DNA of 62,279 nucleotides, counting the filler, from Dugesia japonica (taxonomy: Eukaryota), in the NCBI GenBank assembly GCA_001938525.1. It is 5 parts of 5 records of this genome, joined end to end, with 100 filler letters (N's around TTAATTAATTAA, not from the genome) between each part and the next. Parts side by side here need not be neighbours in the genome. Positions count along the whole stretch, not along the records: positions 14,159 to 26,360 come from MQRL01626615.1; 4 more parts are not named here. The stretch is one strand, 5' to 3'. The first letter of the stretch is position 1. Each line of letters starts with the position of its first letter. This document shows positions 15,619-60,430 of this stretch, one piece after another. The position numbers were made by a program, and so were the translations under genes. The notes below the pieces were generated by a model. It searched no databases. It was not told where the DNA came from and saw nothing but the letters and a program-made list of their open reading frames with translations.

Positions 15619-16207
15619 TTAAAATTGGCAACATCGCAACATTCCAGCCAGCAGAATCATCCATTCTTCCGGATCATCTTCTAGTTTCAAAAGTAATAAC
15701 CATAATTCCTTCGAGTTCGGAATCATTTCCAACGCTTTCCGGCCAACAATCTTCTTGGCTTTCACGGTTTCTTCGAGATTTGCTGCTGCCACCCAAAGCG
15801 AAACTGAATTCGGGATGTGTTTTATCGCTTTTGCTGCAATGCGTTTTGCTTGGGCGATATTATTATTATTTCCACGATATTGTTCCATAATTCGAATGGC
15901 TTCCAGCCACATTTCTTCGCTTTGTGGACAATTCTCACATCCCTTCAACACCAATTGTTTCGATGCGCNGATATTGAGATGCTCTTCAAATCCCACAATT
16001 CCTATCCAACCGCTGGCATTTTTCGGATGCGTTTTGATTATAGAATTCCACAGTAATCGACGTGTTTTAATATCCGGTAATATTTCAATACCACTCGGAG
16101 TCATCGATTGTAAACTAGTCAAATAACTCTTCCGATCGATAGATATTTGACCGGAAACACAGTCCGATATACGACTCAATTTATAGTCCATTAATAATCT
16201 TCTAACA
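15619..16207 (-). pseudogene. PRPF6: Pre-mRNA splicing factor PRP6 fragment (HAT repeats), diverged and truncated
   Basis: SYLTSLQSM..PDIKTRRLLWNSIIKTHPKNASGWI..KGCENCPQSEEMWLEAIR..AIKHIPNSVSLWVAAANLEE..RKALEMIPNSKELW..RCC is colinear with the PRP6 N-terminal HAT region; stops early and the 5' end is in a gap. Confidence 0.85.
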
Positions 16208-16669
16208 NNNNNNNNNNNNNNNNNNNNNNNNNNNNNNNNNNNNNNNNNNNNNNNNNNNNNNNNNNNNNNNNNNNNNNNNNNNNNNNNNNNNNNNNNNNNN
16301 NNNNNNNNNNNNNNNNNNNNNNNNNNNNNNNNNNNNNNNNNNNNNNNNNNNNNNNNNNNNNNNNNNNNNNNNNNNNNNNNNNNNNNNNNNNNNNNNNNNN
16401 NNNNNNNNNNTTAAGTTACATTTAATCTAAATAAGTATTATTTAAATTTAAATATTTAAAATAAGTCGTGTATTAATATTAACTTATTATAATATTTAAA
16501 CTTTATAGCATTATAACATTAACATACTAAAATAAATTTATTTTCTTTTATCAACTTTTAAAAAAGATTTACAAGCTTCTCCCAATTCATATTAAAAACA
16601 TTTTAAGATTTAATTAATTGATACATATTTTTATAAAAAATTTTAATTATGGTAATTATGGAAAATCAC

Positions 16670-17060
16670 GTTAATCTTAGGTTTATCCTCTTTAATTAGT
16701 ATTGGTTCATGTTTTTTCTGTAAATTGCAGAAATGTAGCCTGTTCCTAATGTTTTCCATGTAATATGATGTTTTCTGGTAAAATATTATGTTTCTGTTGA
16801 AAGTGTTTGAAGACTTCACTTTCTTTATGTTTGAGATGTTCTTTAATTCTTGTACGGATGGTTCTGCATATGTTGCCTATATATGTATCCTTAAATAAGG
16901 TGCATGTTATTTTGTAAGTGATATTTTTTATTGCATAAATTTCTACCATCACAAATGCATTTGGGACCACAAAAATTTTGTCTTGGTTTCAGTAATTGGA
17001 TACCCAAAGGTTCTTGGGTTTCATATATATAATTGTGTAGTTAATATTTCACCAGGTTTC
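16670..17060 (-). mobile_element. Penelope-like GIY-YIG endonuclease remnant
   Basis: NITYKITCTLFKDTYIGNICRTIRTRIKEHLKHKESEVFKHFQQKH. Confidence 0.85.
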
Positions 17061-17370: not shown

Positions 17371-17514
17371 TTAAATACATAACATAATAAAATCAAACTA
17401 AAAACATACTAAAAACAAAAATTATTTTTTATTAATGAGAAATGTAGCCAAATCATGCAAAATATAATAAAAATTCTAAACTCTATTTTCTATTTGGTTT
17501 TAATGTATATTTTA

Positions 17515-17720
17515 ACTTTATATTTTCATAGACCTTACTTCACTAATCTTTAAAGAGTGTAATATATTGATAAAAGAAGATAATACGACTGAGTGATAGT
17601 GAGTAAGAGTTGATATGACATGCTTCTTATTTAAAATAATATAACTATTTCAATATATTTTAATCGTCTGATTATCATTCTGCTTCTTTGCTTGCTCCTT
17701 AGTCCAGTCGCTAGTGCTTT
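17515..17720 (-). repeat. Dispersed repeat, same family as 30.7-31.6 kb and 55.0-55.9 kb
   Basis: Shared actgagtgatagtgagtaagagtt and aataatataactatttca with about 55453-55517. Confidence 0.7.
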
Positions 17721-19268
17721 GTTTGCTTGAATTAAAATAAATCGGAAGTCATCAACAAAATCCATCCCAAGTCAGACAAAGACTTTGCTTAGTGATAACC
17801 GAAATTAAACAGAGGTCACGCGAGGTGATCGACAGAAAATTTAGTGCATGTCGGTATGTACGAAATCACTGTCAAAGTTAGAAGGAGAAGATGAATATGC
17901 ATCAAGAAGTTATCAGGTGGCACCCAATCAGAAGAGGTAATNTTCAAATAAAACCATATAACTGGCTAGCTAATAATCATCGACAAATTTCTCTCTCACT
18001 TGGAACGATATAACCAAGCTGAACGAGAGCGAACAACACTTGTTATTTGAAAAATTTATAAAAAAATTTTACTTCATTAAATCAACACAAATTCCAAAAC
18101 AAATTATTTTGTCACTTAGTTTAAAAGCAATTTAAGTTTCATCAGATTCAAGAAATAGCAGGAAAGATTAAAAGTAATTTACAATATATTTTTTAAACCC
18201 ATTTTTAATTTTATTCCAAGTGACCTTTCTTCTAAAACAAATCAATGAATGGAATGAAAATATTGTAATTAAAAAGGAGAAAACTTATGAATTGAAGTGA
18301 GAACAATGTACAGTTCAAAATGAGAAAATAATGTAATTAAAAAGAGGCAAAATTGATAATTCGCAGTGAGTAAACATGCAATTCAAATTGAGAAAATGTT
18401 TAGCAATTTTGCGAACAAGTTTTAATTTAAAAAGTGCTAAAACGTCGCAGTTTTGTGAATCAATCGTCATCAAAAATATTGAAATGTTGTCAGCGTGTGG
18501 GAGAAAACTGAGAAAATTTAGACCACGTTTAGTAATTCAACAAATGAGAAAGTGTTGCAGCTTGATGAATGGAAATGAAAAAGACGGTATCATTGTTTTT
18601 GTAATTTCGCGATAACAAAAATGGGGTCGCGGTTTGATCAATAGAGATGAGGAAAAACAGAGTCGCGATTTCATAATTAAATATGAGGAAAGATGACGAA
18701 ATAAAATGAGAGATCTATGTGAATAAGAAGGAGAGAAGTTTGGTATCGCATAATTGTATAGAACAGAAAAAGAGAATGATAATATAATGGTTTTTCTGGG
18801 AGCTCGATTTCTATACTCCAAATAGTACAGATTTCTTAATTATGCTCTTGATTATGTCGTACACATTCTATTTATTAATCAGAAAATTTGAATAATATTA
18901 TTTTAAATTTAAGTTCATAAATGATATATTACTTATTTTGAAAATTTTAAATATAATTATTATAATTATACATTAGCCATTTTTCTTAACTTCTCAAATT
19001 TAAATGTTGAAATTAAATGAATTGTAAATTGAGTTATAAATGAATTATAAATTAAAGAAATTAAAACATTGAAGAGATAAATGACAACTTGTCCAGCGTT
19101 ACTTTTGTATCGCAAAGCGGTTATTATAAATATCAAATGGACCTTGTGGTCGAATCAAAATTAATTCACAATTCAAAGAACTTATTTTACTGTTTTACAT
19201 TATTATGAATTTAAATTTCTCTTATATAAATTGTTAAGGAGATTTCTGCTAGAGCTTCATACTACCAA

Positions 19269-19364
19269 GGACGAGGGAAGATGTCTGCTTTTAGTGGTCA
19301 TCTTTGCTGGTCCGTGTTAAAGAAGCGGGGATGAATAGATGATAGGCCGTAGGCCGAAGAATCG
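19269..19364 (+). ncRNA. Conserved structured RNA/DNA motif, copy A
   Basis: 21-bp hairpin plus a GATA-GGCC(GTA)GGCC-GAA hairpin; covaries with copy B. Confidence 0.55.
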
Positions 19365-19445
19365 ATATACGGTTTGATTGTTTATTCTATTAAATAAAGT
19401 TATTGGTTTTGCTTATAAAATTGTTAATCACTTGTAACATAGAAA

Positions 19446-19667
19446 ATGACAGAATACTATCGGCCGGAAATGACACTTGTACTCACCAACGACGGAGATG
19501 TGGGAACATTTTGGATTCCGTGGGGGTGTACGATGGAATTTTTAAAGCAGCGAACCAAGTACGAAAAGGAAAAAACGGACCTTTTGTATCGAGGTGGAAA
19601 ATTAGTTGAAAAGAGTAGGAGTGTAAAGCCACAGCTAGTCGAGTCACAGGCCATTCAGCAACGTTAA
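19446..19667 (+). CDS. Unknown ORF downstream of the structured leader (probably repeat-borne)
   Basis: Higher GC than the flanks; ATG just after a candidate acceptor (catag); no recognisable domain. Confidence 0.3.
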   Translation: MTEYYRPEMTLVLTNDGDVGTFWIPWGCTMEFLKQRTKYEKEKTDLLYRGGKLVEKSRSVKPQLVESQAIQQR

Positions 19668-21938
19668 GAGGACGAGACTGCACGGCTCCGTCAAGGAATG
19701 AGACTAATAAAGGAGAACACGATCGCGCTGATGGAACAGGGAGCTTTGTTGGGATAGCTTGAGGAGCAGGTTCTGGCACTGACATCAGCGGATGCCGTGG
19801 ATCAAGAGTTGGTTCCGACTCCTGTCATCGTAAAGGTTGAGTCTTTGCGAGACCAACGAATACATGTTGATTACAATATATTTTTTATTGTTCATTGTAA
19901 GTAGAATGTTAATTTAGTGTGATATGTATGTCACTTTGTTGGTTCATATTTATGATAATGGACTGCAGAGGTGGCAAATCGTCAGTTAATAAGAGTCGAT
20001 GCTAATTTCACTTTTTCCCTTTCCTAAGACTTTCATAATTATATCAATTGTATATGGTGGGTTCCTTGTGTTCTACAATTTTTATGACAAATATTGATTA
20101 CTAATGGATTATTGTATGTATTGTATGTATGTACTTTTGGGTTAGAAAACGAGAGCCCGTAAAATAATTGACAAACTGGGAAAAGAATTCCGAAGGAGAT
20201 ACAGAAAATAAAGTGTAAAGGACCAGAAAATTGATTATTATTATTAGTACTATTATTATTATTATCATTATTATTAGGTACTTGGTATTAGAAAAGAAAA
20301 TCGGGCATTACCTGTTATTAAGAATAACGAAATTTTATATTTTCATGAAAGTGTACTATATTATAATAAAAAATAACAATACAATACTATAATATAAGTA
20401 GAGGAGTCTCTGCGACTCTATTTTCTTTTAGTATAATATAAATAATTCATGGTTTCGATTATTTTTATTATATTGTTATTATCGTTATTATTAATTAAAA
20501 ACAAATAATCCCTGGTCCAAGTCCTATAGATAATCGTACGATGTGATGATTCAACGTAAAACTGGACAAAGAACAACTGCTTGACGACACGAATTGTGTT
20601 TCCCAAATTCGACGTCAATCATTGCTGTACACACAAGAAATCCTATCGGATGTATGAGTGGTCGATGTTAATTAGCCAAGAACCGAAAGTTTGAGCAATA
20701 TTAAGGACCAATGACTGACCAATGAGAGTGACGGATTCAAACAAAACGAGTGTTGATTGGAAGACCAACGAGAATGTATCCAATTCTCACCTGTTCGAAA
20801 TAATACAATTAGCTTACAAAGGAGAAAGAGATTCTCATATTTTAAAAAATTTTTATTGGAATTAACTGAAATAGTAACTAAAACTTAATAAAGATATTTT
20901 TTCTGGCTTATTTTTCTAAGATATTTGACATAAATTGGAAAAACTATTGCACGTGTGAGACTCTAGCAGGAATCAGTTGATCATTAAAAGTAAATTTTCA
21001 TTCCTTATGTTACAATATTATTCATAAAATTTGCATGAATCGAGTCCTAGAATATCGCATGATGATTGTGTTTCCCAAAAGATGAAAAGACAATTTAAAT
21101 CATTGTGAAGAATGAGAGTAAAATTATACTGAAGGGAACATCGAGAAGGTGATGGAGATTATCACGGGGAATGAGAGCAAAAGGTGGTCGAGTGAAGTCG
21201 AAAATACGATTGAAATTCTCATAAATATCGAGAGAGTAAATATGCTGGGAAAGTCGGAGATACCATTGAGTGTATTATAATGGTATAATGATCATAAACA
21301 AAATATTATGTCAAGGAATTTGGAATTCAGATTGAGATTATATCATAGAACTATCCAATCTTAAAATATGAACATGAAATAAATGTTTAATGTTGTTATC
21401 GAATTACGTTGCTTTATGAATGTGAAATGGAAATGTGGTATTTAATTTTTAATAGAAACTAGGTAGTGGTATATTTTCGGTCGTTTACAAGTGATAATCA
21501 ATAAAACATTTAATTTTCGTAATCTTGAATTATTAACTTTTAATTGTATGTTATTTTAAATTCTATAAGTAATTGAAAAGATTAGTTAATGATTTTATGC
21601 CAACTCGTAATTGCATCCAAGTAAAAGTATTAATTTTAAATATGGAAAANTATTCTTCTTCTTTTCTTAAAAAATTCATTTAAGTAATGAAATTTCTTCA
21701 AGGACTCGTTATACGTTATTTCTCTGCATTAATTTTAGTAGTTTATTATTCGTTATCTCAGTTACCCTGTCCTTGATTTGGTTATTTAATTTAATTTTTA
21801 TCCTCATTGCAGATTAATTTGTTATAGATGATAACATTTCTACAATAATGCTTTAACGCATTTTCATCGAAAAAAGTAATAATGACTTCATAATAATTTT
21901 ATTTAATATTTACTTGCAGTGGTTACTTGCACGATTGG

Positions 21939-22035
21939 GAACGAGGAAAGAGGACGGTTTATGACTGTCCTCTCCGCTGGTTCGTAATCTAGAAGGGGTG
22001 AACTAAACCGGATAGGCTGCAGGCCGAAAAAATCG
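21939..22035 (+). ncRNA. Conserved structured RNA/DNA motif, copy B
   Basis: 21-bp hairpin plus a GATA-GGCT(GCA)GGCC-GAA hairpin. Confidence 0.55.
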
Positions 22036-22100
22036 TGATTGTAATATTTCATTCTACCTAATCATTCTATACAAATTTCGTTAATAATTTTAATTAATAG

Positions 22101-22517
22101 ATGTTGAGAATGAGGAAACATCATAGAAAATGTGCAAGATATGTGTGGCCTTATATTGACGAAACAGGCCGATATTACATCGAGTGGTTGGAAGTTCAGA
22201 CAATGCTATTAAAAGAAAGAAAGGGGCGTAAATTAGAAAATCAGAATATAAGAACCTATCTGGACATTATGTCATTACAACTAGCCATTAAAGATAGTAA
22301 AATACAAGTATTAGAATTGCAGCTGGAGAAAATGTGGGAANNNNNNNNNNNNNNNNGGAAAGAAGAATTCTTGAGAAAAGGGGAGAATAATTGTAAAATT
22401 CCAGTTGTGAAGGACGAATTAGATGAGCAGCGAAAACGAGAACTGGAGCTCAAAATCTTGCGAGAGCTGATGGGCCTAAATATGATCTCATCGTTGGAAT
22501 TTGGAAACGATGTGTAA
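22101..22517 (+). CDS. Unknown coiled-coil ORF downstream of the structured leader
   Basis: 138-aa ORF with heptad-like LQLAIKDSKIQVLELQLEK; ATG directly after a candidate acceptor (aatag). Confidence 0.35.
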   Translation: MLRMRKHHRKCARYVWPYIDETGRYYIEWLEVQTMLLKERKGRKLENQNIRTYLDIMSLQLAIKDSKIQVLELQLEKMWEXXXXXXKEEFLRKGENNCKIPVVKDELDEQRKRELELKILRELMGLNMISSLEFGNDV

Positions 22518-23096
22518 ATAAACGTAGTTGTAATTAATTGATTTGGTGCTCAATTTTTTTTGTTGGGCTAAAGAAATTATATCTTTGTCTGAGTTTGAGA
22601 TCATTGTTAGGTGTTGTAGAGGCAGCTGTAGAGAAAATTGAATGCTTATTATTTTTATTTGTCTTTATGCCAACTTTTGGAATTAATTTTGGATTGTTAA
22701 GTTGTAAAGATAGAATATTCTTTGATCTAATTAATTTATTTTAAATTCTGTCTATATTCCTTTAATGAATAAACCAACCGAGTCACCAGTGACTAGAAAA
22801 GATGTTGTAGAAAAGCAAAAACGATGGAGCGAGAAGCGCTAAGAATTGTAAAATGAGGTGCTTAGACTGAAAGGCGCCAATATAAAAAATGGAATGAAAA
22901 TGNNNNNNNNNNNNNNNNNNNNNNNNNNNNNNNNNNNNNNNNNNNNNNNNNNNNNNNNNNNNNNNNNNNNTTACGCTGATAGGGAGGTTACAATGTTTAA
23001 CATCCTCAAGACATTGTGGTTGAACTATCGAACAACAAGTGAAGAGACAGACGCTTCTGCATCTACAGTGGATTTAGATGTCTGAGACAAAATAGC

Positions 23097-23560
23097 TGGG
23101 GAAAAAAAGAGGGAGTCTTAATTTATTTCGGTTATGTATGATTGTGATGGTGATATGGGTCGTTGCCTATAACAAATAAGTACTGAGCATAATGGTAAAG
23201 AGGTTCAGAAAATCAAAGAGTAAGTCGCAATTTCGAGCTGAACCCGAGAAACGTGCGGCATGTCACAAAGGTGACATAAATGCTTAAGATTTCTAGGTGT
23301 GCAGAATTATAAAATAAACTGAATGAAAGTTGAGAATGGAAATGAATCAAAATCCTATGAATATTACAATGTTTGCGAAATTTGTATATAGCTTTATCAA
23401 TCTTATTTAACTGAATTTTGAATCACTCAAACGTGTTTTTTGGTTGAGCCAATGTAATAACCCTTAAGACGAACCTGTACCTAAGAGCGAATTCGGATAT
23501 AAATATCTTGGGCTTTTTATTACATACAGGCTTTTTTTTATATAAATATTGTTGGGCTTT
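23097..23560 (+). repeat. Polypurine tract followed by LTR-like sequence
   Basis: ggggaaaaaaagagggag, then motifs shared with 59.95-60.2 kb (ggcatgtc, ttcgagc..aaccc, aattcgga..tataa). Confidence 0.4.
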
Positions 23561-30739: not shown

Positions 30740-32400
30740 AAGTATTATTTATTTGTCAATATGTTTTTCTAAATAATAAATTATAATGTAGTGGAGACTA
30801 CTTACAACAATCTCTTTAATAAATAAATCTTTTTAAATGGTCTTAAATTCAATGATAAAACCAATAGTTTCATTATAAAATCCATATTTTCTGCTTAAAA
30901 CCAATATTTTTATGATAAAATCCCAGTTTTTCATTAAACCTATATTTTTAATGTTGAATCAAGTATTTCTAATACTAAGACCCGTATTTTTTATGTTGAA
31001 CTCATATTTTCTAACTTTACTAATAATAAGGTATGTAAATAAAAATAAATCCATGAAAACCAAAGTGCAAGCAGAGTTGCCAAGGTGCACGGAGAGAACC
31101 AAGGAGAAATAGAAGGATAATAAGATGATGAAAATATACTGAAATAGTTATATTAATTTAACTAAAAAGCATATCATACTAGGTCTCACTGAGTCTTATT
31201 GTCTTCTTTTATTAATATATGACACATTTTAAAGATTAGTGAAGTGAGGTCTATGAAAATATGAAGTGAAAATATGCATTAAGACACAATAGAAAATAGA
31301 GAAAATATAGCTAAATAGTAGTAAATAACTGAAAGTGGTGGAAAATAAGAGGAAATATAACTAAATATCTCTAAATAGGGGTAAATCAGGCAAATAGGGG
31401 TAAATGTTGGTAAATGACTAAAAATATGGCAAAATATGGTAAAAAGTGACGAATTGTGTATAAATTAAACATATTAAATAACTATATAAATAATAAATGC
31501 AGTATAATTAGTGACTTGGTTTACTCTATTAAATATTTTATATGACCAAACCAGTATTTTCTANNNNNNNNNNNNNNNNNNNNNNNNNNNNNNNNNNNNN
31601 NNNNNNNNNNNNNTGACTTGGTTTACTCTATTAAATATTTTATATGACCAAACCAGTATTTTCTATGTTAAATTTTTATTTTCAATAGGTCAATAAATTT
31701 TCTATGATAAAGCTAGTACTTTCAGCGATGAACCATTATTTTCTAATGTTGAAATCATATTTTCAATAACGAAACCATATAATTATGTTTACGTTATAAT
31801 CAAATGACTGAGTTTACTGACTGATAGTTATGCATTTAAAGGATAAATAAATCCATAAAAAACCAAGGTGCATGCAGGTTTGCCAAGGTGCACGCAGGGA
31901 AACAATGAGCAAGCAAAGATGAAGGCTTTTATTGTAAAGATAAACCTATTATTTTCATTTTGAAACCATATTGATATGAAATTGTTATCTTTTATCCAAT
32001 AAAATAAATCATGTGTCATTATTGATATTCAAAACGTATTACATAAATATAAAAACAATAAAGTGAAATACGGCAAAATATTGGAAAATCCAGCAAAATT
32101 GAGTGAAATTTGGCAAAATAAACCAAATTAGTGTAAATAGACAAGGCAGGGCAAGGCAGCGTAAATACGATAAATTATGGTAAAAAACAGAGTTAAAACA
32201 ATGTAAAAACAGGGTACAAACATGGTAAACATGATAAATACATGGTAAACATGATAAATACGTGGTAATATTAGGTAGAAAATAGGGTACAAATTTGATA
32301 ATTAGAGTAAAATATAGCTAAATATGGTAAAATCAATGAAAAACAGGGCATAGAAGAGAAATTAACACTTTAAACAAACAATTAGTATAANNNNNNNNNA
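30740..32400 (+). repeat. Dispersed composite repeat with internal 10-20 bp tandem units
   Basis: 30740-31560 is the reverse complement of about 55060-55930; the GC-rich ttgccaaggtgcacg motif is duplicated at about 31077 and 31880. Confidence 0.75.
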
Positions 32401-32976: not shown

Positions 32977-33379
32977 TTTCAATGAACCAATATTAATTTA
33001 ATTCATTTTTTATACGTTTCATATAGTTTGAATCAACCAATCGTATTTTATCTACATTTTTATTGGTATTTACTCACAGAAAAACTATTACATAAACTTG
33101 ATAATGTAATAATAATAAATCAATAATCATCTACAATCAACAAAAAATAAAATAATCAAATAATAATAATTTACAAAAACAAAAATCAAAATCAATTAGT
33201 TGAATCAAGAAATATTAAAGTAGTAAATCAATAATAGTACATTGTATTCAAGTCTTTTAATCAAAAATTTTTGAGACTGTCTTCTGCATTGAGGTTTCGA
33301 ATTGGGTGTGTGTGTCCATGCACTTCACCCCCCACATATGATTTTATATGTATATGCATTGTTTTGTTTTGATTTTTTT

Positions 33380-34945
33380 GTCTAATTTCAACAAAATGAT
33401 GTTTTATATGAAATTAGAAGTAATTATATTAGCAGATTTCTTTAAGAATTTAAGAGAAACATGTTTAAATAATTATCAAATAGACCCAAGTTATTGTTAC
33501 TCAGCCCCAGGTCTAACTTGGAATTCTGGAATGAAATTTACTAAATCAAAATTGAAATATGCTCAAAAGGAAACTTATGACAGATTTATTAAAATAGAAA
33601 GAGGAGTTAGAGGTGGATATTCAGGAGTATGTGGAGAAAGACGGGTCTTTGGAAATAGTAAAAGAAATAATAAAAAAAATAAATAATGCTCAATTAGATG
33701 ATTTATTAAATATATTTAGAAATCTTGAGCAATATCTTAAAAGATGATTATTTTGAAGAAACATTTTTAAAATATTTAGACGAAAATTCATTATATCATC
33801 TTGTATGACTAAACCCTTACCAACAGGTGAAATCTATGAATGTAAGGACTTAGAATATATTAAATCAACAGATAAAATTAATTATATTTATGAACTGAAT
33901 ATCCTCCAGAGATACATGAAAAGACAAAATACTCTCCATTAGCTCCAGATCCAATAAATATAACTAAAGATATGTTAGCTCCTTATCAATTATCATTTAA
34001 TAAGAAATTAAGTAAGAAAAATGTTAAATTAACTTTAAATCAATTACGTAAACAAAATTATATAGTTTTAGGTTCTACACCAGATTTTTATTTATTTCTA
34101 GAAATGAAAATTAAAAAAATACATTCAAAATATAGAATGCCAACAAAACCTTGGTTAAAAGATTATATACAATTTAATATTGAACAAAGAAATTAATCAA
34201 AAAGAAGTAACAATGTTTTTGGTGATTATTTATTTAAATTATTGAATAATGCTTTCTATGAAAAAACCTTAGAAAACATAAGAAATAGATGTAATGTTGA
34301 AATTGTAGATAATGATAAAGACTATCAGAAATTTGCTTCAAAGATAAATTTTAAATCAAGTAAAATATTTAGTTTTAAAGAAAATGGCGAAGCGAAATCA
34401 GCAGCAATTCATCTTTACAAAACTAATTTAAAATATAATAAATTTACTATTTTGGAATATGCAAAAGAAGTTTTATGTGATTTTATTTATAATCAATTAG
34501 ACAAAGAAATACCAAATAAATATAAAATTCATTACTGATTCTATATTTGTAGAAATAATTGGACAAGAGAATTTAAATAAAGTAACAAGTTTATTAGGAA
34601 ATAATTTATGAAATAGTTAAATGTAATTTCATAAAAACAAAAAGTTATATTATTCAGGATCACGTAGCTCAAGCCGGAGGCGATCAAAAAGCAGGTACTA
34701 TGAATATAAAAACTAAACAAAAAGGAGTTTCAGAAGTAAATAAAATAGGAATGGAAATTATGATAAAGTTTTAAGTAGTAAAGAAATAATTTATGGAACT
34801 AGTTATAGTTTAAAATCACATTAACATGAAATTGAATTAGTTGAACAAAAAAGGATTGCAGGGTTAGGGTTATCATCATTAACAGGTTATGATGATAAAA
34901 GATTGATTGAGGATAATAGAATAAGGACATGGTCATATGGAAATA
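33380..34945 (+). pseudogene. Polinton/Maverick protein-primed DNA polymerase B, copy 1 (C-terminal half)
   Basis: LADFFKNLRETC..DPSYCYSAPGLTW, ERGVRGGYSG, YLDENSLY (motif A), KLLNNAFYEKTLEN (motif B), TDSIF (motif C), YDDKR..YG; many frameshifts. Confidence 0.93.
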
Positions 34946-45249: not shown

Positions 45250-48232
45250 TTATTTATTTATTTTATAATGGCCATAGGCCAAACTTGTATTTTTATCATT
45301 CCAAAAACGCTTAGCATCTAAACATGATAATGCGCGTTTCCTAGTTACAATTGAGTATATCTGATGATTAATTGATCTGAAACTAGATTGATCAACAGTT
45401 GTTAATTCATCTGAAATTCCATTGTACACATTGACATAATTTTGATGCTGATTTTCTGTTTGCTTTAGACTGACTCCCTTTGCTTTCATCGCTGTTGTTG
45501 AATCTTTCTTCATTAGGCTATAGCATTTTGGTCTTAAAAATAGCCATTCTGCATATTCTTCTTCCTGGCCTTCATCTTTAAATAGCCCAATTTTAGCCCA
45601 AATAGCCCAGTTAGCTACTTTTCCAGAATAAAGTGGATAATCTTTCGGATAAATACTTGTATACAGAAAACCATCAGATTTTATTTGAGATAACAATTGG
45701 AATTTGTCCACGCCAGTACATGTGAGAAAGAAACTATCTGTTTCACAGGCAATAATATCAATCTTGCATCCAAAACGTTGACAATATTTTTCAAGTTCTT
45801 CATATTGCAATTGGTACATTCTCAACTTGCTTAGATTCAAGACTACTTGTCCGGCATAGCTTGGTCGATTTAAATAGATACTGTTTTTATTCAATAATAC
45901 AGCTTTTAAACCATCTGCAATATCCATCGTAACTTTGCTGTTATTAGTTACAATTTTTTTCTCATAATTGCAAAGCCGGAGATTCATTCTTTTTTTCAAA
46001 TTTTCTACAGTCTTTCCATATAGAGCATTGTTTAAAAGCTTGAAAAATCCTTTTCAAATTTTGCTTTTTGAAGCACCTCTTTTAGCTGAATTTGCATTTA
46101 TGTAATTTGCAAATATCTTCGTTTCCTTAAACTCTACTATTTTATGCACAATAGTAACACGAGCCCCTAATTTTATAAATAGTTTCAATAAACGTCAATG
46201 TATAACGTAATGTTGTTTTTTGCTCATGGGTCAGCAACAGTTTCTTCACTTTCGATCCCGGAGGACATTTTTCTGTTCTGGAGACAATGTTAACTGATCA
46301 AACCTATCATGAGTTTCAATAGGTATTTCCAAATCAATTTACAATAAATATCCGATATCTGAATTTACATCATTGCAAAGCATTTCTTGATATTTTTCTT
46401 CCACTTGATCTTCTTCTAAAAATTTGAAATCCTTATATGGCAAAAGCTCTGTAAATGCCCAACCATATAAATTATAGAGCAGTGAAGTATTCTCATCTGC
46501 TTGAACATGATAATGATTCACAATACGAATACCCAATTCAAATAATCAATGCATTTCTGAATTCTAAAGCAATTCCATTGGTCGATCCATTGTTTTGAGA
46601 GCACTTGATCAACTCAGTTCAGATAATGAGACAAATCGAAGCTCCTTTAATCCATGCTTGTCAAGTGATTTTTTGCAAAATGATTGAAATACATAAGCGA
46701 GTAAATAAATATCCAATTTCATATAATAAAGCATATATTCAAATAGATTCTTACAACCAGATTCAATCCATGCCACTCTCGCCATTTCATATTCTTGTTC
46801 AGTTATTTCAGGCCACTGTGGTAGAAATGTTGTTTGATTTATATACATTTCATATGATGTTGCGAATTTGTATGAGATGATATCTTTTGACAAATTTTTC
46901 GAAGGTAACTTGATGTTATTGGCCAGCTATCTAGATTTGCAGATAAATATGATAAAGATCCGCTCAGGAACTGATATGAGTCAATGAATAGATCTGTGAC
47001 ATCATCAACACGTGCAAACATGGCCAAAAATTTCTCTGTAGTTTGAGCGATTGGTTTGATGTCCCCATTTTTGAAGTGATTGAGCGCTTATTTGACTATA
47101 TGATGCGAATCATAACCTTTAAAGTTATGAAACAAAATAGGTAACTCTCTTTTGATTTAATGCAATAAGTTACATTGACTACATGCCGCTCCAAGATATT
47201 TTCAAGAATAATGACCATGATCACGAACTAACTTTGATTTCTTGTTTCCACAAAAAAACAATTTGTACTCTTTTTGAACGCTTCCTGTTTCAATGTTGTC
47301 AATTTCATATCTGTATGCATATTTGTACTGTACCATGGCACCACTGAATCTTTCAACAACTGATCAACACACTGCTAAAGTTCAACCATACAATTTTCAC
47401 CAGAATATGAATAGTATTTACATTTCATTGTTTTATCCAATAGTAGAATCAGCAAAAGTCCTACAGCCATAGGTACATGTTTCACCATTCCGCAATCCTC
47501 TGGTACTAAGATAGCTTCAATATCTGCATAAATCACAAAAGCTGGAGTAATGGTTTTTCCATAATCTTTGAACCTTAATTCCTTTTCCTCGGCCATTGTA
47601 TACAAGAATGCCTTTTCTGTTATTTGAGTGCACAAAGCTACATGACGATCGAATGTAGATTGTGTTTTGAATCCATATAGACATTTTGAGTACCACTTTT
47701 TATAATTTGAATTTTATAAGTCCGATTATGTAAATTTAACAATCTATCTAAATTTACTACGCCCGTGTAGTGAAATGCTCTATCATTTTTTAAAACTAGT
47801 AAATTCACTATGCGTCCATTAGGGTTTTTTGTACAAAAAACTATATCCACATGTGGATTTTTATATTAAATTTCATCATCCACGTCAATCAAATCATTGT
47901 ATTTGAATACTGTGATTGATAGATTATTTTTTCTTTCAAATTCTGGAATGTCGATGAGTTTCATCGGCATTTTCTGCTCATCATACATTAACCAATTTAA
48001 ATATGGTTCATATTTTTGTGGTCGATCTCGATTATCCTTGACTATATCATATTTTAGAATGGCAAGCACACTATATATAAAACAGAAGTTACCTTAATCA
48101 TGCACATTGACTGTGGCCTTTGATCTATTCAGTGCCATAGGACTCTTGATGAATGATCTGCGAGATAAATAGATTACTGGTGAAAATTTAACCAAAATAA
48201 ACCTGAGCTCTAATATTCTTTTAATCTTCCAT
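45250..48232 (-). pseudogene. Polinton/Maverick protein-primed DNA polymerase B, copy 2 (nearly full length)
   Basis: NFCFIYSVLAIL..FERKNNLSITVF, FVIYADIEAIL (ExoI), DHGHYS..LGAAC..C, LFHNFKGYDSH (ExoII), FIDSYQFLSGSL, YMKLDIYLLA (ExoIII), KLLNNALYGKTVEN, ETDSFF, LRPKCYS, KAKGV, LDAKRFW..LAYGH. Confidence 0.96.
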
Positions 48233-48378
48233 CTACTATATATATATATATATATTATATGATTATGAAAGTTATTACATTTAACCGCTAATATTTTTCA
48301 GTTGAGTTTAATTAAACTAGTTACTTGTAATGATGCAAGTTTTGTTTTATTTTTCAATAAATTTTTATTTTTATTTAG

Positions 48379-48652
48379 ATTGAACATTTGCAAATTCTTT
48401 ATGGAAAATAATTGCCCAAATATTAATTTTTGCAAATTAACTCATTCTCCTAATACAGTCAAAGTGGAAAATGGCACTGTTTCAGTATGCCATGATTATA
48501 TAAAAGTATATTTAGTCTTTTATCATAAATTTCATGATTTTTATATTAAGAAAAAGGATTGTAAATATGTAAATTGCAAATATTATCATCCACACGATGT
48601 CCTAATTTATGATATTTTGGGAAGAAGAGATGCTGATTTAAAAATTAACAAG
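48379..48652 (+). CDS. Muscleblind-like tandem CCCH zinc finger exons (48379-48505, 48551-48652)
   Basis: LNICKFFMENNCPNINFCKLTHSPNTVKVENGTVSVCHDYIK|KKDCKYVNCKYYHP; the VENG linker and spacing match MBNL ZnF1-2; 45-nt GT-AG intron. Confidence 0.75.
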
Positions 48653-49024
48653 GTAGTTAATTTTATTGATTTGAGTTTATTTTAGTATAAAATTTATTTT
48701 TACATTAAAATATATAAAGATTTACTTATAATATTTTAGAATCTTTTAATTATTTAATTATTGATTTAATAATTTGCAANNNNNNNNAAATAATCTCTAA
48801 ATATATTACAATTAATTTGTAATTAAAATGTCTTTTTATTTATTATAAATGAGATAGATAATTAGAATAATTCATAAATAATTATTTATAAGATTGTAAA
48901 ATCAGTAAGTAATCTTTAAATATATTGCAATAGATTGAACATATTTTAATTGTTTTTTAATAATGAAAAATCCATCAAACTAATAAAAAAATATGATATT
49001 TTGGTCATGATTAATTTCATTGAT

Positions 49025-49434
49025 TTAATCAATTTCCAATATATATTGTCTGATTTCATTTATGATCTCATGATAATCAAGTGATTTTAGTCCAATAATT
49101 ACAACTTTCCCACTAGCAAAAACATTAACACATAACGATTTATATTTATTGATACTTAATGCAGGAAATAATTCAGGTTCAAACCAACAATCATCATAAC
49201 CATTTAATCTATATAAATTCACTGGTTTTCCGAGATTCCATGTCACTGTAATTGATTGAATACAGTCTATTTAAAATTTGAGATTTTTGTAAGTAATTTC
49301 TTTATTCATAATCGGTTTCTTACAACCCACGATTTGACATTTACCAGATAATAAGATTTTTTCCAAGTATTAAATCGTAGAAGCTGAGATTTATAATTAA
49401 CCACACGAGCCCTGTAATAAATATTTGGTGGCAT
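49025..49434 (-). pseudogene. Compact intronless TATA-binding-protein-like gene within the Polinton
   Basis: Repeat 2: WFEPELFPALSI..VNVFASGKVVIIGLK (TBP YEPELFPGL..IFVSGKVVLTGAK). Repeat 1: LSGKCQIVGCKK. One frameshift and one stop; ATG at 49434. Confidence 0.8.
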
Positions 49435-49466
49435 TGTTTGAATGTTTTTAGAACAACAGCTATTGG

Positions 49467-49503
49467 CTTTTATACTCTCACATGCTTCATATAAACAAAA
49501 TCA
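49467..49503. promoter_or_regulatory. Back-to-back TATA elements between the TBP-like and ATPase genes
   Basis: TATAAAAG on the minus strand (49467-49474) 33 nt before the TBP-like ATG; TATAAACAAAATCA on the plus strand (49490-49503), repeated at 50125-50138. Confidence 0.5.
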
Positions 49504-49519
49504 TATATTGCTATTTACA

Positions 49520-50130
49520 TTAAAAAGATTTACTTCAAAACAATGCGGTTTTTCAAATATTTGGTCCAAGCGGAAGTGGAAAAACGTATTTTGTTTGTAA
49601 ATTACTGCAAAGCAAATTGTTTCAGACAAAGTTCAAACATATCTATTGGCATCAAAGTGGTGATGGTGAATCGGGATTGACTGGTGGAGAATTTTGTAAA
49701 TTGAAAAACATGATAGTAATCAATAGATTTGATGATGATTGGAACAAACGATTAAAGGTAGGTGATGTTATTGTAATCGACAACTTGTGACAAGAGGCAA
49801 ATAAACAAGTCGATTTTAATAATCTCTTTACAAAATCTGCTCCTCGTGGTAATGTAACTGCAATCTTCATCATCCAAAATCTTTTTCATCAAGGCGGGAT
49901 GCATCGTACTCGTACTCTTAATTTATTTTATTTGATTTATTCAAGAATCCTCGAGATCAAACCGTAGTTGATTATGTTTCTCGTCAAGCATTTCCTCATA
50001 ATAAAAGATTTTTATCCGATGCATTTAACGATGTTACCACAAAAGCATTGTAATTGTCCCGATGATGAACAAGTGATAACAGATATATTCAATATTCAAG
50101 GAAAACCCGTTTACAAGCCCGTGGTATAAA
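49520..50130 (+). pseudogene. Polinton A32/FtsK-like genome packaging ATPase
   Basis: FQIFGPSGSGKTYFV (Walker A, 49563-49586), VIVIDNL (Walker B), LFTKSAPRGNVTAIFIIQNLF, LFKNPRD, FLSDAFND. Confidence 0.92.
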
Positions 50131-53410: not shown

Positions 53411-53559
53411 GACAGTGATTGTATTTTAATTGAATCTGATGTTGTATTGAGGTTAAATAAAAATTTTAATCTTGACTTGGTTTTTTAATATTTGTTTTAA
53501 ATAATGTGTTATAAAAAATTTTTTAAAAACAAAATTTAAAAAAATTTTTAAAAAAACAA

Positions 53560-54966
53560 ATTAAAGGAAAAAATTTTCTACCCCTCCCCCGGGGCAGGGT
53601 GATCTAGAAAACTTTTTCTTTGTTTGTTTGGACATTGAAAAAATTTCCAAAAAAATATGAGTCTTTTCTACAAAAATCTACAAAATTTTTCTTTGTTTGG
53701 GGAAGAGGAGGGTGTCTTTGTTTTGACTTGGAATATTTTTCGAAAAATATGTATGACTCATCCTAGGAGTCATTGTCTTTGTTCTACATGACCGATGACT
53801 CATCAGAATGAGTCATGGTCTTTGTTCTAACCGCCGATGATTCATCAGGATGACTCATTTCTTTGTTTCAAAAATGATGAGTCATACAAATTTTTCATAG
53901 TCTTTGAGGTATAGGTCATTAACTACTTTGCTGAATTACATATTCTCAGGTTTATTCTTTTCTTCAGATTTTCAACTGATTTGTCATACAAACTATTGTT
54001 CATCAGCTTACAGTAAATTTTATCTAATTCGTTCACACTTTAAGCTCTTGATTTGGTGTTTTCATCGATGTATTGCTTGAAAATGTGATCTTGTGAAAAT
54101 ATAACTGCTCCGTGAACATTTGTAACTTGCATTAGTCTTTTTCATTTGTCTTTTATATATTATTAATAATATTGTCTGAGAAGCATATAATCTTAATATT
54201 GCCCGGAGCGATTAGTATTGATGTTAATACTGCTCATGGAGATTCACTTCAACATTTGAAAATTTAAAAAAAATAAGTTTTTCTATCGATTGTCTTTAAA
54301 AAATCCACAAAAATCATTAAATCACTTAATTTAAATAAAAATCCCAAAAATCAGTAAATTTATACAAATCATAAAAAACAAATAATTTGAACAAAAATAA
54401 AATTAAACATTAAAAAAAAATATTACGTCTGCGCAGGAAATTTAAATATTAAATTTGCGCGGGAATTTTTAATATTAAGTCGGCACAAGGATTATTAATA
54501 TTAAGTCTTCCCGGAGATTAATAATATTAAATCTGCACGAGAATTAAGCATCTGATAGTTGATATTGACTTAAAAGTATTTGTCATGGAAATGACCTTTA
54601 TCTACTTTTATTCGACCTCGATATATTCCACCATACAGATTATTAGATACTATCTCATGTTGACCTTGAAATATTTCAACTAATCAGATCGAATAATACT
54701 ATGTCACTTTGACCATGAAACATATCAACCAATCAAAAGTCAGGATACTATATCACTTTGACCTTGAAAATATTTTGACGAGTCAGAATCTAATATACTG
54801 TATCAGTTTGACTTTAAAAATTCAACCTTTAAATTTTTCACCAATCAGAATTGAGTATATTAGATCACGGACCAATCTGAATCAAGAATTTTGTATCAGA
54901 GACTTTGAAAAAAATTTCTTTTCAGGGGAGGAGAGGCGATACAGTGCGCTACTATTTACCTACTCT
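53560..54966. mobile_element. Polinton terminal region/TIR with tandem motif arrays
   Basis: TGACTCA/TGAGTCA array 53753-53886; 27-bp units 54420-54545; about 49-bp TGACCTTG/CCAATCAG units 54590-54885; terminus reads AGAGTAGGTAAATAGTAGCGCAC on the minus strand. Confidence 0.65.
53900..54135 (-). pseudogene. Protein-primed PolB fragment, copy 3
   Basis: IFKQYIDENTKSRA*..KLMNNSLYDKSVENLKKRINLRICN (motif B). Confidence 0.85.
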
Positions 54967-54979
54967 TATACCTGATTAC

Positions 54980-55935
54980 AAGGGTTCGTTATTGAAAATA
55001 TGAGTTTCACATTTGGAAAATAATGGCCTTATCATAGAAAATTATGGACTATTCATAAAAAATACAAGTTTTACCATGAGAAAATATTTATTAGAGTAAA
55101 CTTAGTCACTAATTATACTGAATTTATTATATACATAGTTATTTAATATGTTTAATTTATACACAATTTGTCTCTTTTTGCCGTATTTTGCAATATTTTT
55201 AGTCATTTACCAACATTACCCCTATTTGCATGATTTTCCCATATTTAGCCACATTTAGCTATATTTACCCTTATTTTCTACCATTTCTCATCATCTACAG
55301 TTATTTAGCTACATTTAGCTATATTTAAAATATTTGGCCATATTTTCTCTATTTTTAATTGGGTTTATTGCATATTTTAACTTCATATTTTCAAAGACTT
55401 CACTTCAATAATTTTAAAAGATTGTCATAAAGTGAGAAAAGAAGATATGTAAACTGAGTGATAGTGAGTAAGAGTTTATATTAAATGCTTTTTATTAAAA
55501 ATAATATAACTATTTCAGCCTATTTTAATCATCTAGTTATTTTTTCTTCTTTACTTGCAACTAGGCAACCCTGCTTGCTGTTTCATTTTATGGGATTCTT
55601 TTTTCTTTGCATAGCCAATATTCAAATACATTGTTGAAGATAAGATTTTAACATAGAAAATACGGATCTTATCTATAGAAATATTGATCTCAACATTAAA
55701 AATATTAGTTCCAATAGATAAAGTTATGGTTTCATCATTGAAAAAATGGGGTTAATCATGAAAATATGAGATTTTTATAATGAAATACTGATTTCAATTT
55801 GAGAAATATATGTTTTTATAATTAAATATAAGACTATTAAACCAGATACTTTCAATAAACCAATTTTTGTAAGTAGTCTCACTACATTATAATTTATTAT
55901 TATTTAGAACAACATATTGACAAACAAGTCATACA
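54980..55935 (-). repeat. Dispersed repeat, inverse of 30.7-31.7 kb
   Basis: For example aagtagtctc(c)actacattataatttattatt and tatttaatatgtttaatttatacacaatt. Confidence 0.8.
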
Positions 55936-57399: not shown

Positions 57400-57935
57400 T
57401 TTAGTGTTAATGATGCTTCTCTGAATAGAGTGTGAAGCAAATAATTGGAAGGAATCATGTTAGTAGTATCAGTTGATGCAAAGTCCGTTCCATTCGTTGA
57501 ATGAATTAAAAGTTATGACTAGAATAAAGATGATCAATTTGGTTCATTAGATGTAACAAATCTTTATGGATCAATTCCGATTGAAGGACAAGAAAATCTT
57601 ATCGATATTGTAAGTGATTTCTTTGAGAGATATAAAAAACATACAGATATCCATGAAATCACTAAAAATGATTTCAAATCTTTTATTAATTTGTGTCTAT
57701 TTTCTAACAGCATTTTTATCGGTGAACAGCTTTTTAAACAAAAAAGTGGTCTGGCAATGTGTAACAATTTGTCTTCTATTTTAGCGATAATTTTTATGAA
57801 CTTCATTGCAAATGAATTTATTTCCAAAGCTGGAAGGAAGATACATCTTTGGTTCAGATATATAGACAATATTACTAATTCTTCATTAGAAAATATTTTA
57901 GAACTAGCCAATAGTATTAATGATTTACTTCAGAG
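57400..57935 (+). mobile_element. Penelope-like reverse transcriptase fragment
   Basis: GSLDVTNLYGSIP, FKQKSGLAMCNNLSSILAIIFM, WFRYIDNI. Confidence 0.88.
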
Positions 57936-57939
57936 GGGA

Positions 57940-60430
57940 AACCGAATTATGAATTGTTATTATTACCAGATCACTTTCAACAAACAATAGCAAATGTAAT
58001 GAAGAAAATATTGGGTTGATTTATAGTTTTTGGACAAGCAATGAAATGACTATTGGGAATAATATCCATTATGCAAATAATCAAAGTACTACTTACTCAA
58101 TTATTAGCTTGTTTCGATTTATACAAAAAGGAAAGGAGAATGTCATAGACAATGATTATGGGATTGTTCCCAGCTTGGGCTAAATCAGTCGTACTGAACA
58201 CTCATTCAAACGATATCAGAGTCAGGTGGGCGCAAGCGATAGGCAAATAGTTGAACAAATTAGTGCAATATAAGATGACATACGAAAACCAAAGGCCAGA
58301 AAAACATCCTATTTTGATGTATTTAAACCATGAAAACGACAATATAGCAGTACTGATTATAGTGATAATGTTACTTGTGGTAAACGTCAAAGACGAGGAG
58401 TTGTCCCAAAATAGGGATACGGAAAGGACCAGAGAGTGGTCCCGAAAAATTATCAAAATCAGCAATCAGATGGGAATATCGCGGAAGATAATATCTACAA
58501 ATAAGAGGGCTGAAGTAAAATCAATTTTTATGGTTATCCACAAATGAGAATACAACAGTGTGAAAATAACAAGCATTTTAGTAGATATCGAAGTGACGAC
58601 GAAAGACAATCTAGGAATGGAGAGAAATTAAATGAATATCGGGGTCAAGAGGAGCGACATTACAGATCCGGAAACGGGAGGTTACGGAGAAACAGTAAAG
58701 CATGGAAGTGGTTATGGTATTTGAGTTATAGAGCAGGAAATTGAGAACTAATCTACTATCCGAATGATGAATTACAGCAAATCAGCAGACAACACGAATT
58801 CAAGCAGAGCATGAAGCTAAAAAGAAATCTTATGGAATAACGGATAACGAAATCATTGGAACAACACCACCCAAAGATACAGATTTTAATATATGATAGC
58901 AAAGAAATAAATGCAAGGATACCAGAACTTTGCGTCAATGACAATGCCAGGTGATCAAGTGTTACTCAAAAAGTTGACAATTAACGGTAGAGACATAGAT
59001 TTTATGATCGATACCGGAGCGTATAGATCAATAATTGATAAACTAGTATTATATGAAGTAGACAAATAAGTGAAATTAGAACGACAGATAAATAAAAACG
59101 ACCAAACAAAGGACTATATTTAGTGTTAGAGACAACTGTGACAAATTTAAAAATGAAGGAAGTGGGAAAAACACTCAAGAAGCCAAGTATTGCTCATTTG
59201 TTGCGATGTAAATTGTATGCAACTAAAGATGACAATGATAGAGAAAGCGATGATGAAACCGTTAAAAGAGTAAAAGGAGTCAAAGTCAATCCAAAAACGG
59301 AAGACAGTGATGAGGAGATCAAGCCAAAGATTAAACAGGCAAAATGAGTTGGCTTCCAAAAACTAAATTAATTGATGAGGAGAATCGATACCCGATTAGA
59401 TCCAGGCAGCAGCTAATGATGAATACTGAGAGGACGAGGGAAACAGAAAGTATAATAAACGATGTTCAAGGAACAAAAAGTAATAAACAAGAGGAATGGC
59501 GGATATGCTGCAAAAAAAAACCAACTTCAGTACTTTTAAACAAGGAGCTAATGGGAAAGCGTGTTTTCATTGTTTACCGGTTATGTGTGATGATTTAGCC
59601 GACTTAGTGAAAAATCTGAGTCGTGAGTCAACCCTGGAAGAAAGAGACAAGTTTTAAATCAAAGGATCATCGTACAAGCAATGTGCTTGAACATTGATTA
59701 AACTATCAAGTATAACAAGTGAGTATCAACAATAGTGCAGAGGTTGTCTGAATTGTGCTCAGATGGTCACTACAACAGAAATCAGATTTGTACACAAGTA
59801 CTTAAAGGGGTTAACAGTCGCAAATCTTATACGGCTGAGTATAGAACCAACTCCGAGCGAGATTGTGCCACAATGTGAGATAGATAATAATTTAGATATT
59901 TTTAAGAATGGTGGTACCATACTTAAACAGTATTACTAATCTATAAAGAAGGGAGTGGCTCAAGTAATAAAACTAGATGGGGATAGTCCGACGAGATGTC
60001 ACGTGCGTAATTTTGAGAAGCAGATATGCGAGGCATGTCTGTTAGCGATTCAAATAATTACCAGAAAAAGGCAAGAACAGTTGATCTTTAATAGCAGTGT
60101 TCGAGCGGAGAACCCAATCGTTCCACATGTGAGCAGTGTAATGAAATAGCGTTCATACTGAAAGTAAATTCGGACTTATATAAGCAATGGTGTAATTGCT
60201 GACTGTATAAAGCCAAAGGAATTATTGACAATGAATTGGAGTGTTTACATTTACATATAAGACATTTTTGCATTGCATGGGTAGTCTTGCATGGTATGAG
60301 CAGTCTTGAAATTTTGAACAAATATGGATTGTATAATTTACCTTTTATAATTTATTACATTGTTTATATTTGTTTTAACGGATCAATTAAATTAACTCCA
60401 TCAAAACCCCAATCTTTCTCATTAATTCAT
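57940..60430 (+). mobile_element. Decayed gypsy-like LTR element (gag/protease remnant, PPT, LTR)
   Basis: LTINGRDIDFMIDTGAYRSII retropepsin motif at about 58975-59040; aaagaagggag PPT at about 59945; LTR-like tail. Confidence 0.65.

Follow-up and report, generated by a model that had tools for sequence, protein, structure and literature searches.

Planarian genomes carry Ty3-gypsy elements of the Burro/GYPSM1 type, which are large and multicopy and which, in the available parts of their description, have accessory ORFs and a Ubi2/SUMO-like motif (PMC6431247). The genome of Schmidtea mediterranea is more than 70% AT according to the accessible text of its source (PMC11410931). Likewise, the accessible passages of the literature report that packaging signals are conserved at the level of structure (PMC4558846) and that ribozymes are frequent in retroelements (PMC4209133, PMC6765202). 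Structured cis-elements of invertebrate mobile elements have barely been catalogued. The window considered here, a 62,279-nucleotide stretch of Dugesia japonica DNA, contains two copies of a motif that is a real, apparently uncatalogued structured RNA family in a dispersed repeat. The motif, about 100 bases long, consists of a 57-nt stem-loop (P1), a purine-rich linker and a small hairpin of the form GGCY-GYA-GGCC, and sits 70-80 nt before the acceptor-like AGs and start codons of two different ORFs. The features are as follows.

18250 to 23500, plus strand: G-skewed block of about 5 kb, drawn from cumulative G-C skew, with both units inside; candidate parent repeat
19263 to 19319, plus strand: P1 of copy 1, with 27 stem positions and a 3-nt loop; the upper part is 19269-19313
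19320 to 19344, plus strand: copy 1 linker, purine-rich and mostly single-stranded as predicted from unpaired probabilities, with an AUG at 19339
19345 to 19364, plus strand: copy 1 small hairpin, GGCC-GUA-GGCC, with its GAAGAAUCG tail; paralogue similarity mostly stops at 19361-19364
19365 to 19442, plus strand: copy 1 spacer, 22% GC, a candidate intron with acceptor-like TAACATAG at its end and a 3' part common to paralogues
19446 to 19904, plus strand: ORF1, 152 codons with two in-frame stops; paralogues in runs X8 and X13
21933 to 21989, plus strand: P1 of copy 2; the upper part is 21939-21983
21990 to 22034, plus strand: copy 2 linker, small hairpin (GGCU-GCA-GGCC) and tail, with no AUG where copy 1 has one
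22035 to 22100, plus strand: copy 2 spacer, 20% GC, a candidate intron
22101 to 22517, plus strand: ORF2, 138 codons, with a gap of 16 N; a basic N-terminus and a predicted helical structure; paralogues in X8, X13 and X16

On the plus strand, P1 folds at -25.7 kcal/mol in copy 1 (z -5.33) and at -29.7 kcal/mol in copy 2 (z -6.05), and for each copy none of 200 shuffles is equally stable; the minus strand folds more weakly, at -12.9 kcal/mol (z -2.53) and -19.9 kcal/mol (z -4.82), respectively. Among 8418 GC-filtered 57-nt folds of the window, -24 kcal/mol is reached at these two loci only. The window's third most stable 57-mer (-22.3 kcal/mol) lies at 53554-53629, in an inverted repeat that is long, imperfect and GC-rich at its centre. 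The GC content of the motif is 49-50%, that of its flanks 20-25% and that of the window 20-36% per 2-kb block. The first-pass annotation had described each stem as 21 bp with a 3-nt loop; the 21 positions and the loop stand, but pairing is incomplete, with 18 of 21 positions paired in copy 1, which has a U-U at stem position 16, and 17 of 21 in copy 2, where positions 9 and 10 are A-C, in both cases besides G-G mismatches at positions 5 and 8. P1 adds six further stem positions to these 45-mers; its basal five pairs diverge widely and are mostly still paired, and copy 2 has a G-G at the place of 19268:19314.

The linker and the GATA-GGCY-GYA-GGCC-GAA motif that had been reported after the stem are found in both copies; directly 3' of the small hairpin, copy 2 has GAAA (22026) and copy 1 GAAG. 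A switch in which the linker pairs with the 3' strand of P1 is equalled by 10 of 1000 shuffles in copy 1 and by 713 of 1000 in copy 2, and because it beats shuffles in copy 1 and fails to do so in copy 2, it is discarded as a property common to both. No linker pseudoknot common to both copies was found.

Comparison of the two copies reveals six double-sided and three one-sided pair-keeping changes among the 24 pairs of P1, and one further one-sided change that keeps pairing in the small hairpin. The four compensatory changes noted earlier (G-C/A-U, U-A/G-C, U-G/G-U, and C-G/U-A) are all present in the 21 positions. In the two-row alignment 92.9% of 56 cells are paired although stem identity is only 34/57, and the six double-sided changes of the true alignment compare with 0-1 in six slid controls. 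Shuffle controls match the percentage paired in 17 of 500 cases and the covariation count in 33 of 500; since 33 shuffles reach the same count, two sequences alone do not prove covariation. Read on the plus strand, the one-sided changes are G-U wobbles, a pattern that favours this strand as the RNA strand.

Relatives of the motif are found by searching the stretch 19215-19470 against public runs X1, X4, X7 and X19 at 80% identity or more, which matches 102, 95, 9 and 1 contigs, respectively, numbers that are not copy numbers; X7 carries a second species label, organism B. At 95% identity or more the matches are 1, 2, 0 and 0. The X19 contig is not counted as a family member, being 41 nt long with six differences and unrelated flanks. 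Contig depth is maximal over 19323-19358 in all four runs, and the linker and small hairpin are the best-conserved part of the motif, in organism B too. Depth falls after 19364 and climbs again at 19413-19466, over the acceptor-like site and the start of ORF1; single paralogue contigs bridge motif, spacer and ORF1 start (19287-19435 and 19342-19466), and upstream sequence from about 19224-19247 is also common to paralogue contigs. In paralogues that run past the core (11 contigs in X1, 9 in X4), a donor-like GT follows within a few bases. A stand-alone SINE or retroposed small RNA was considered and set aside because the paralogues share upstream sequence, acceptor and ORF1 start.

The variants within this family are unphased, and the counts that follow are based on the 40 of 104 variant rows listed. 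Eleven of these variants fall in P1: for 10 of the 11 the family contains a partner state with which they can pair, and 7 of the 11 pair with the window's own partner base, as against 43 of 162 possible substitutions. Positions 19280 and 19302 change at like shares (23% and 20% in X1, 22% and 20% in X4), as would a G-C to A-U swap. The family stem is imperfect, retaining a purine-G mismatch at 19268:19314; two of copy 1's mismatches can pair in at least half of paralogue depth, and A-C at stem position 9, judging from the shares of A (44-55%) and C (81-83%), must be common in the family. The G-G mismatches at positions 5 and 8 had been taken as kept features, and both copies have them; position 5 shows no variant among the 40 of 104 rows listed, but at position 8 the G at 19306 accounts for only about 7% (X1) and 3% (X4) of contig depth, the rest being mostly G-U, G-C, or A-U. 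No variant is listed between 19339 and 19366 among the same 40 of 104 rows. Unphased as they are, the family variants appear mostly to keep the stem, and the earlier proposal of a selected RNA structure is supported by the many paralogues, the second species, the mostly pair-keeping variants and the G-U pattern for the plus strand.

Outside this family, a covariance model built from the two copies (R1) recovers nothing in the window but the same two copies, on both strands; the next match has 10.7 bits. Metagenome loci with the 18-nt motif are chance matches; 49 of 49 have a GC content of 40-72% and no matching upstream stem, and 15 of the 49 score 16-24 bits with R1 because they were selected by the 18-mer. 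Some bacterial-looking metagenome loci (L004, L015, L035, and L045) have a GTCATCCTGAGGCCG...GGCCGAAGGATC repeat that resembles the REP type and is unrelated to the motif. Viral contigs give no motif match and no relatives of ORF1 or ORF2.

Both copies lie in repetitive DNA. The interval 19.2-22.3 kb is mostly matched by paralogues of 80-95% identity (20 of 30 bins in X8, 18 of 30 in X13), and because these match ORF1, ORF2 and several stretches between, the block is taken to belong to a dispersed repeat of several kilobases. In X13, six paralogue reads jump from 20121 into letters matching 23351-23380 (27 of 30, by eye), which suggests that some relatives are without 20122-23350, a 3.2-kb module of copy 2 and ORF2; no target-site duplication was found around this module. 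Further segments well covered by paralogous contigs and reads are 20029-20121 and 20456-20679, the latter with a predicted stem at about 20575-20624, and inverted repeats at 20360-20479 (z -3.4 on the plus and -4.9 on the minus strand) surround a short GAGTC..GACTC hairpin. Tandem duplications at 18256-18397 (68 nt, 2.1 units) and 18617-18695 (36 nt, 2.2 units) lie at the start of the block, an enhancer-like position, and decayed purine-rich frames on the plus strand, with no Pfam match, occupy 21064-21400 and 22770-23330.

Reading 17.6-23.6 kb in six frames, with X at stops, gives no Pfam domain, and no gag, protease, RT, RNase H or integrase; this method has limited sensitivity on decayed DNA, since from the remnant at 58-60.6 kb it recovers nothing but the protease, and the same genes would be missing from a solo LTR or an accessory region. 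TG...CA ends with target duplications of 4-6 bp form 62 candidate pairs, as against 34 and 55 in two control regions, with none prominent, and ARAGORN finds no tRNA genes in the window.

Elsewhere in the window, a PRP6 fragment at 15619-16410 (minus strand) of 193 codons is intronless and nearest to the human protein (E 8e-60, as against 6e-26 for the second PRP6 entry); it is possibly a retrocopy, and a GIY-YIG remnant at 16749-16988 (minus strand) adjoins it. An RT fragment (RVT_1, E 0.004) is found at 57523-57990 and a decayed gypsy-like region at 58200-60100, with an aspartyl-protease motif at about 59 kb (E 5e-4); neither remnant has a copy of the leader motif. Decayed ORFs at 33342-34538 (plus strand) and 45250-49790 (minus strand) look by eye like DNA polymerase B and a packaging ATPase, with no significant Pfam support, which suggests Polinton remnants. 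Mariner-like ORFs are also recognised by eye. Another dispersed repeat is present in three copies (17481-17695, 31105-32332, and 55081-55558), two of them with 10-nt tandem units.

Downstream of each motif, a spacer bounded by GT and AG measures 71 nt in copy 1 (19372-19442) and 66 or 60 nt in copy 2 (22035 or 22041 to 22100); a second acceptor-like site of copy 2, CATAG at 22126, aligns with the copy 1 acceptor. The two ORFs had been called unrelated, which holds for the proteins (1051 of 2000 shuffles score as well, so that protein homology between ORF1 and ORF2 is rejected) but not for the DNA, where homology continues past the motif and through the spacer: permissive blastn aligns 19271-19448 with 21941-22132 (62% over 193 columns, E 1.6e-9), as far as a common CATAGAAAATG. 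Upstream of the motif, the copies are identical at 33 of 100 positions. Protein searches with ORF1 give no Pfam family and no homologue. Four ORF1 matches to tandem-repeat proteins, with scores summed over 3-16 weak stretches, are dismissed as artefacts. Its N-terminal 73 aa are modelled as strand-strand-helix-strand-strand at low confidence (pLDDT 48); a ubiquitin-like fold lacks significance (the best Foldseek row of this kind has E 2.8, and the best VIA Z is 3.7) and serves as a lead only. For ORF2, the structure model (pLDDT 61) offers no confident fold, and protein searches give no Pfam family and no homologue (Atlas best 0.83).

RNA searches over 19000-22330 yield 1, 45, 8 and 39 records in X12, X13, X16 and X8, with 6-25% of the raw runs read. 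In that share of X12, X13 and X16, no raw read reaches 95% identity to the locus, and therefore the RNA reads are assigned to paralogues; one X8 contig matches 20840-21403 with five differences. Among the runs listed as containing this sequence none is recorded as RNA, which counts neither way. In X13, an oligo-dT library, four reads extend across P1 and 10 across the core, so motif paralogues are transcribed, whereas the locus itself, with two stops in ORF1 and no RNA read of at least 95% identity, looks decayed. Six of the X13 core reads enter from upstream letters resembling the 3' strand of P1, and 9 of the 10 depart from the window sequence at 19358 or 19361 and go on in AT-rich, intron-like letters; the latter look unspliced. 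Introns of 65-70 nt had been proposed and GT..AG spacers of about that length exist, but no splice joint at either is listed in eight runs, four of them over copy 1 only. No pile-up of read starts or ends was found at the motif, at low depth. All X13 depth over 19224-19447 is first-mate plus and the small X16 depth there first-mate minus, in libraries that are uncalibrated; the X13 signal would be RNA antisense to the plus reading if the library is of the commonest stranded type.

The motif is tentatively best explained as a cis-acting 5' leader, a protein-binding expression switch common to a mobile element's small genes, which are probably spliced. A cis-acting RNA common to several small genes is proposed because the structure is kept, varies by plus-strand wobbles and holds a fixed place 70-80 nt upstream. 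Transcription would start just upstream of P1, which would fold first and, by analogy to TAR or RRE, might bind a protein through its purine-purine mismatches; the linker and small hairpin would close a first exon, which splicing would join to the ORF, and different ORFs would thereby come under one common control. The parent would be a large LTR-type retroelement. Of the leader already envisaged in the first-pass annotation, the position makes it plausible, but neither a transcription start nor a splice junction emerged from the runs.

The main rival to the leader is a retroelement signal for replication or packaging, in which the GGCC hairpin dimerises genomes and G runs bind Gag or, alternatively, the linker AGAAG(C)GGGG is the polypurine tract preceding the TG of an LTR. 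The computed intermolecular duplex of the small hairpin (-15.9 and -13.9 kcal/mol) and the conservation of linker and small hairpin, in organism B as well, are consistent with packaging, as is the structure-level conservation of such signals noted above, and both copies have a polypurine run followed by TG. However, the T of this TG is variable in 18-27% of depth, the copy 2 hairpin is an imperfect palindrome, no retroelement gene is found in 17.6-23.6 kb, and the copies share motif and spacer only, unlike an LTR pair, which leaves packaging, dimerisation or a polypurine tract unlikely.

The core could instead be a short first coding exon or uORF that begins at AUG 19339 (MIGRRPKNR...), with initiation gated by the stem-loop. 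This AUG is in frame with ORF1 once the 71-nt candidate intron is removed, and in 95-96% of paralogue depth its position -3 holds a purine, which is little informative because the whole linker is purine-rich. The reading explains copy 1 but not copy 2, where the hairpin is kept without the AUG and an Arg codon becomes Cys, and the donor-like GT of the paralogues lies elsewhere than the donor needed for the ORF1 frame; it is improbable. Equally to be doubted is a conserved 5' UTR element of a lineage-specific multigene family of the host rather than of a mobile element: oligo-dT RNA contains paralogues, and the searches turned up neither a transposase nor RT or LTR ends, but the motif is common to two ORFs unrelated as proteins, most of the 3.3 kb examined is repetitive, and the decayed locus lies among mobile-element remnants.

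A self-cleaving ribozyme of a new class, freeing the RNA of each ORF from a longer transcript, is very unlikely. In its favour, the multicopy repeat has between its helices a single-stranded purine core that is conserved in sequence, and ribozymes are common in retroelements, as cited above; against it, no Rfam ribozyme matches near its gathering score, no pseudoknot of the linker occurs in both copies, and of the oligo-dT reads of X13, six carry the 3' strand of P1 and the core on one molecule and nine run past the core. The first-pass annotation had likened the small hairpin to hammerhead stem II while noting that CUGANGA is missing; the hammerhead core is indeed absent in both copies, and the atypical ribozyme that it entertained is not upheld. 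The last alternative, a DNA-level feature such as the terminal hairpin of a DNA element or a transcription-factor site, or a neutral inverted repeat copied with the repeat, draws on the good fold of the copy 2 minus strand (z -4.82) and on the GNA loop of the small hairpin, hairpins with such loops being stable in single-stranded DNA, but is made highly improbable by one-sided changes of the plus-strand G-U wobble type and by the 92.9% of pair cells kept at 34/57 stem identity.

If the motif is the shared leader favoured here, it would show co-regulation of several unrelated small genes by one large repeat, and an unannotated repeat family would gain a compact marker. Covariation analysis, probing and a cleavage assay are feasible, as at least two species offer many natural variants. 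A bolder extension, for which the chances are slim, is a TAR/RRE-like switch or self-processing RNA that would act as a modular leader for each small accessory gene in a giant retroelement of invertebrates, the candidate trans-activator being the basic, helical ORF2 product; whole modules of leader and ORF appear to come and go between copies.

No described family accounts for the motif as far as Rfam goes. Rfam 15, whose families include hammerhead, HDV-like, twister, pistol, hatchet and hairpin ribozymes, snRNAs, snoRNAs and retroviral leaders, gives no match for the whole window at E<=5, and local scans return three and two rows, all far below cut-off (the best has 17.2 bits, as against 40). 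The sole related row, HIV-1_SL3, scores 11.5 bits (E 8.8) where the cut-off is 33. In its arrangement the motif may be compared with HIV-1 TAR, RRE stem IIB and psi: a stem-loop some 57 nt long, carrying purine-purine mismatches, is followed by a small hairpin, a donor-like site and a start codon. We take this likeness to the HIV-1 stem-loops to be architectural only. Unlike retroviral leaders, the motif has no sequence or covariance match, is repeated before separate ORFs and lies between no convincing LTR ends. The literature searched leaves the 18-nt core and the motif topic undescribed; subscription papers, supplements and repeat libraries lie outside that search and could describe the parent repeat.

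The minimal hammerhead of Penelope elements, as presented in the accessible text, resembles the small hairpin in having a small helix closed by G-C pairs and followed by GAA, within a repeat and near the end of an intron (PMC4209133). It differs in that neither CUGANGA nor a variant with U3-A8 precedes the helix here, no RT/GIY-YIG adjoins (PMC4209133, available parts), and a long separate stem-loop lies upstream of the small hairpin. Neither strand of either copy has CUGANGA or UUGANAA ahead of the small hairpin; the one match, at 22104, is downstream in ORF2.

Burro elements differ from the block in their polyprotein, no domain of which is detected in 17.6-23.6 kb, and the available description of Burro names no structured leader (PMC6431247). 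The low-confidence model of ORF1 has a strand and helix order that would be ubiquitin-like, which may be compared, without significance, to the Ubi2/SUMO-like motif of Burro. By description, in the parts of the sources available, Burro elements are a plausible parent of the motif repeat (PMC6431247, PMC8532177).
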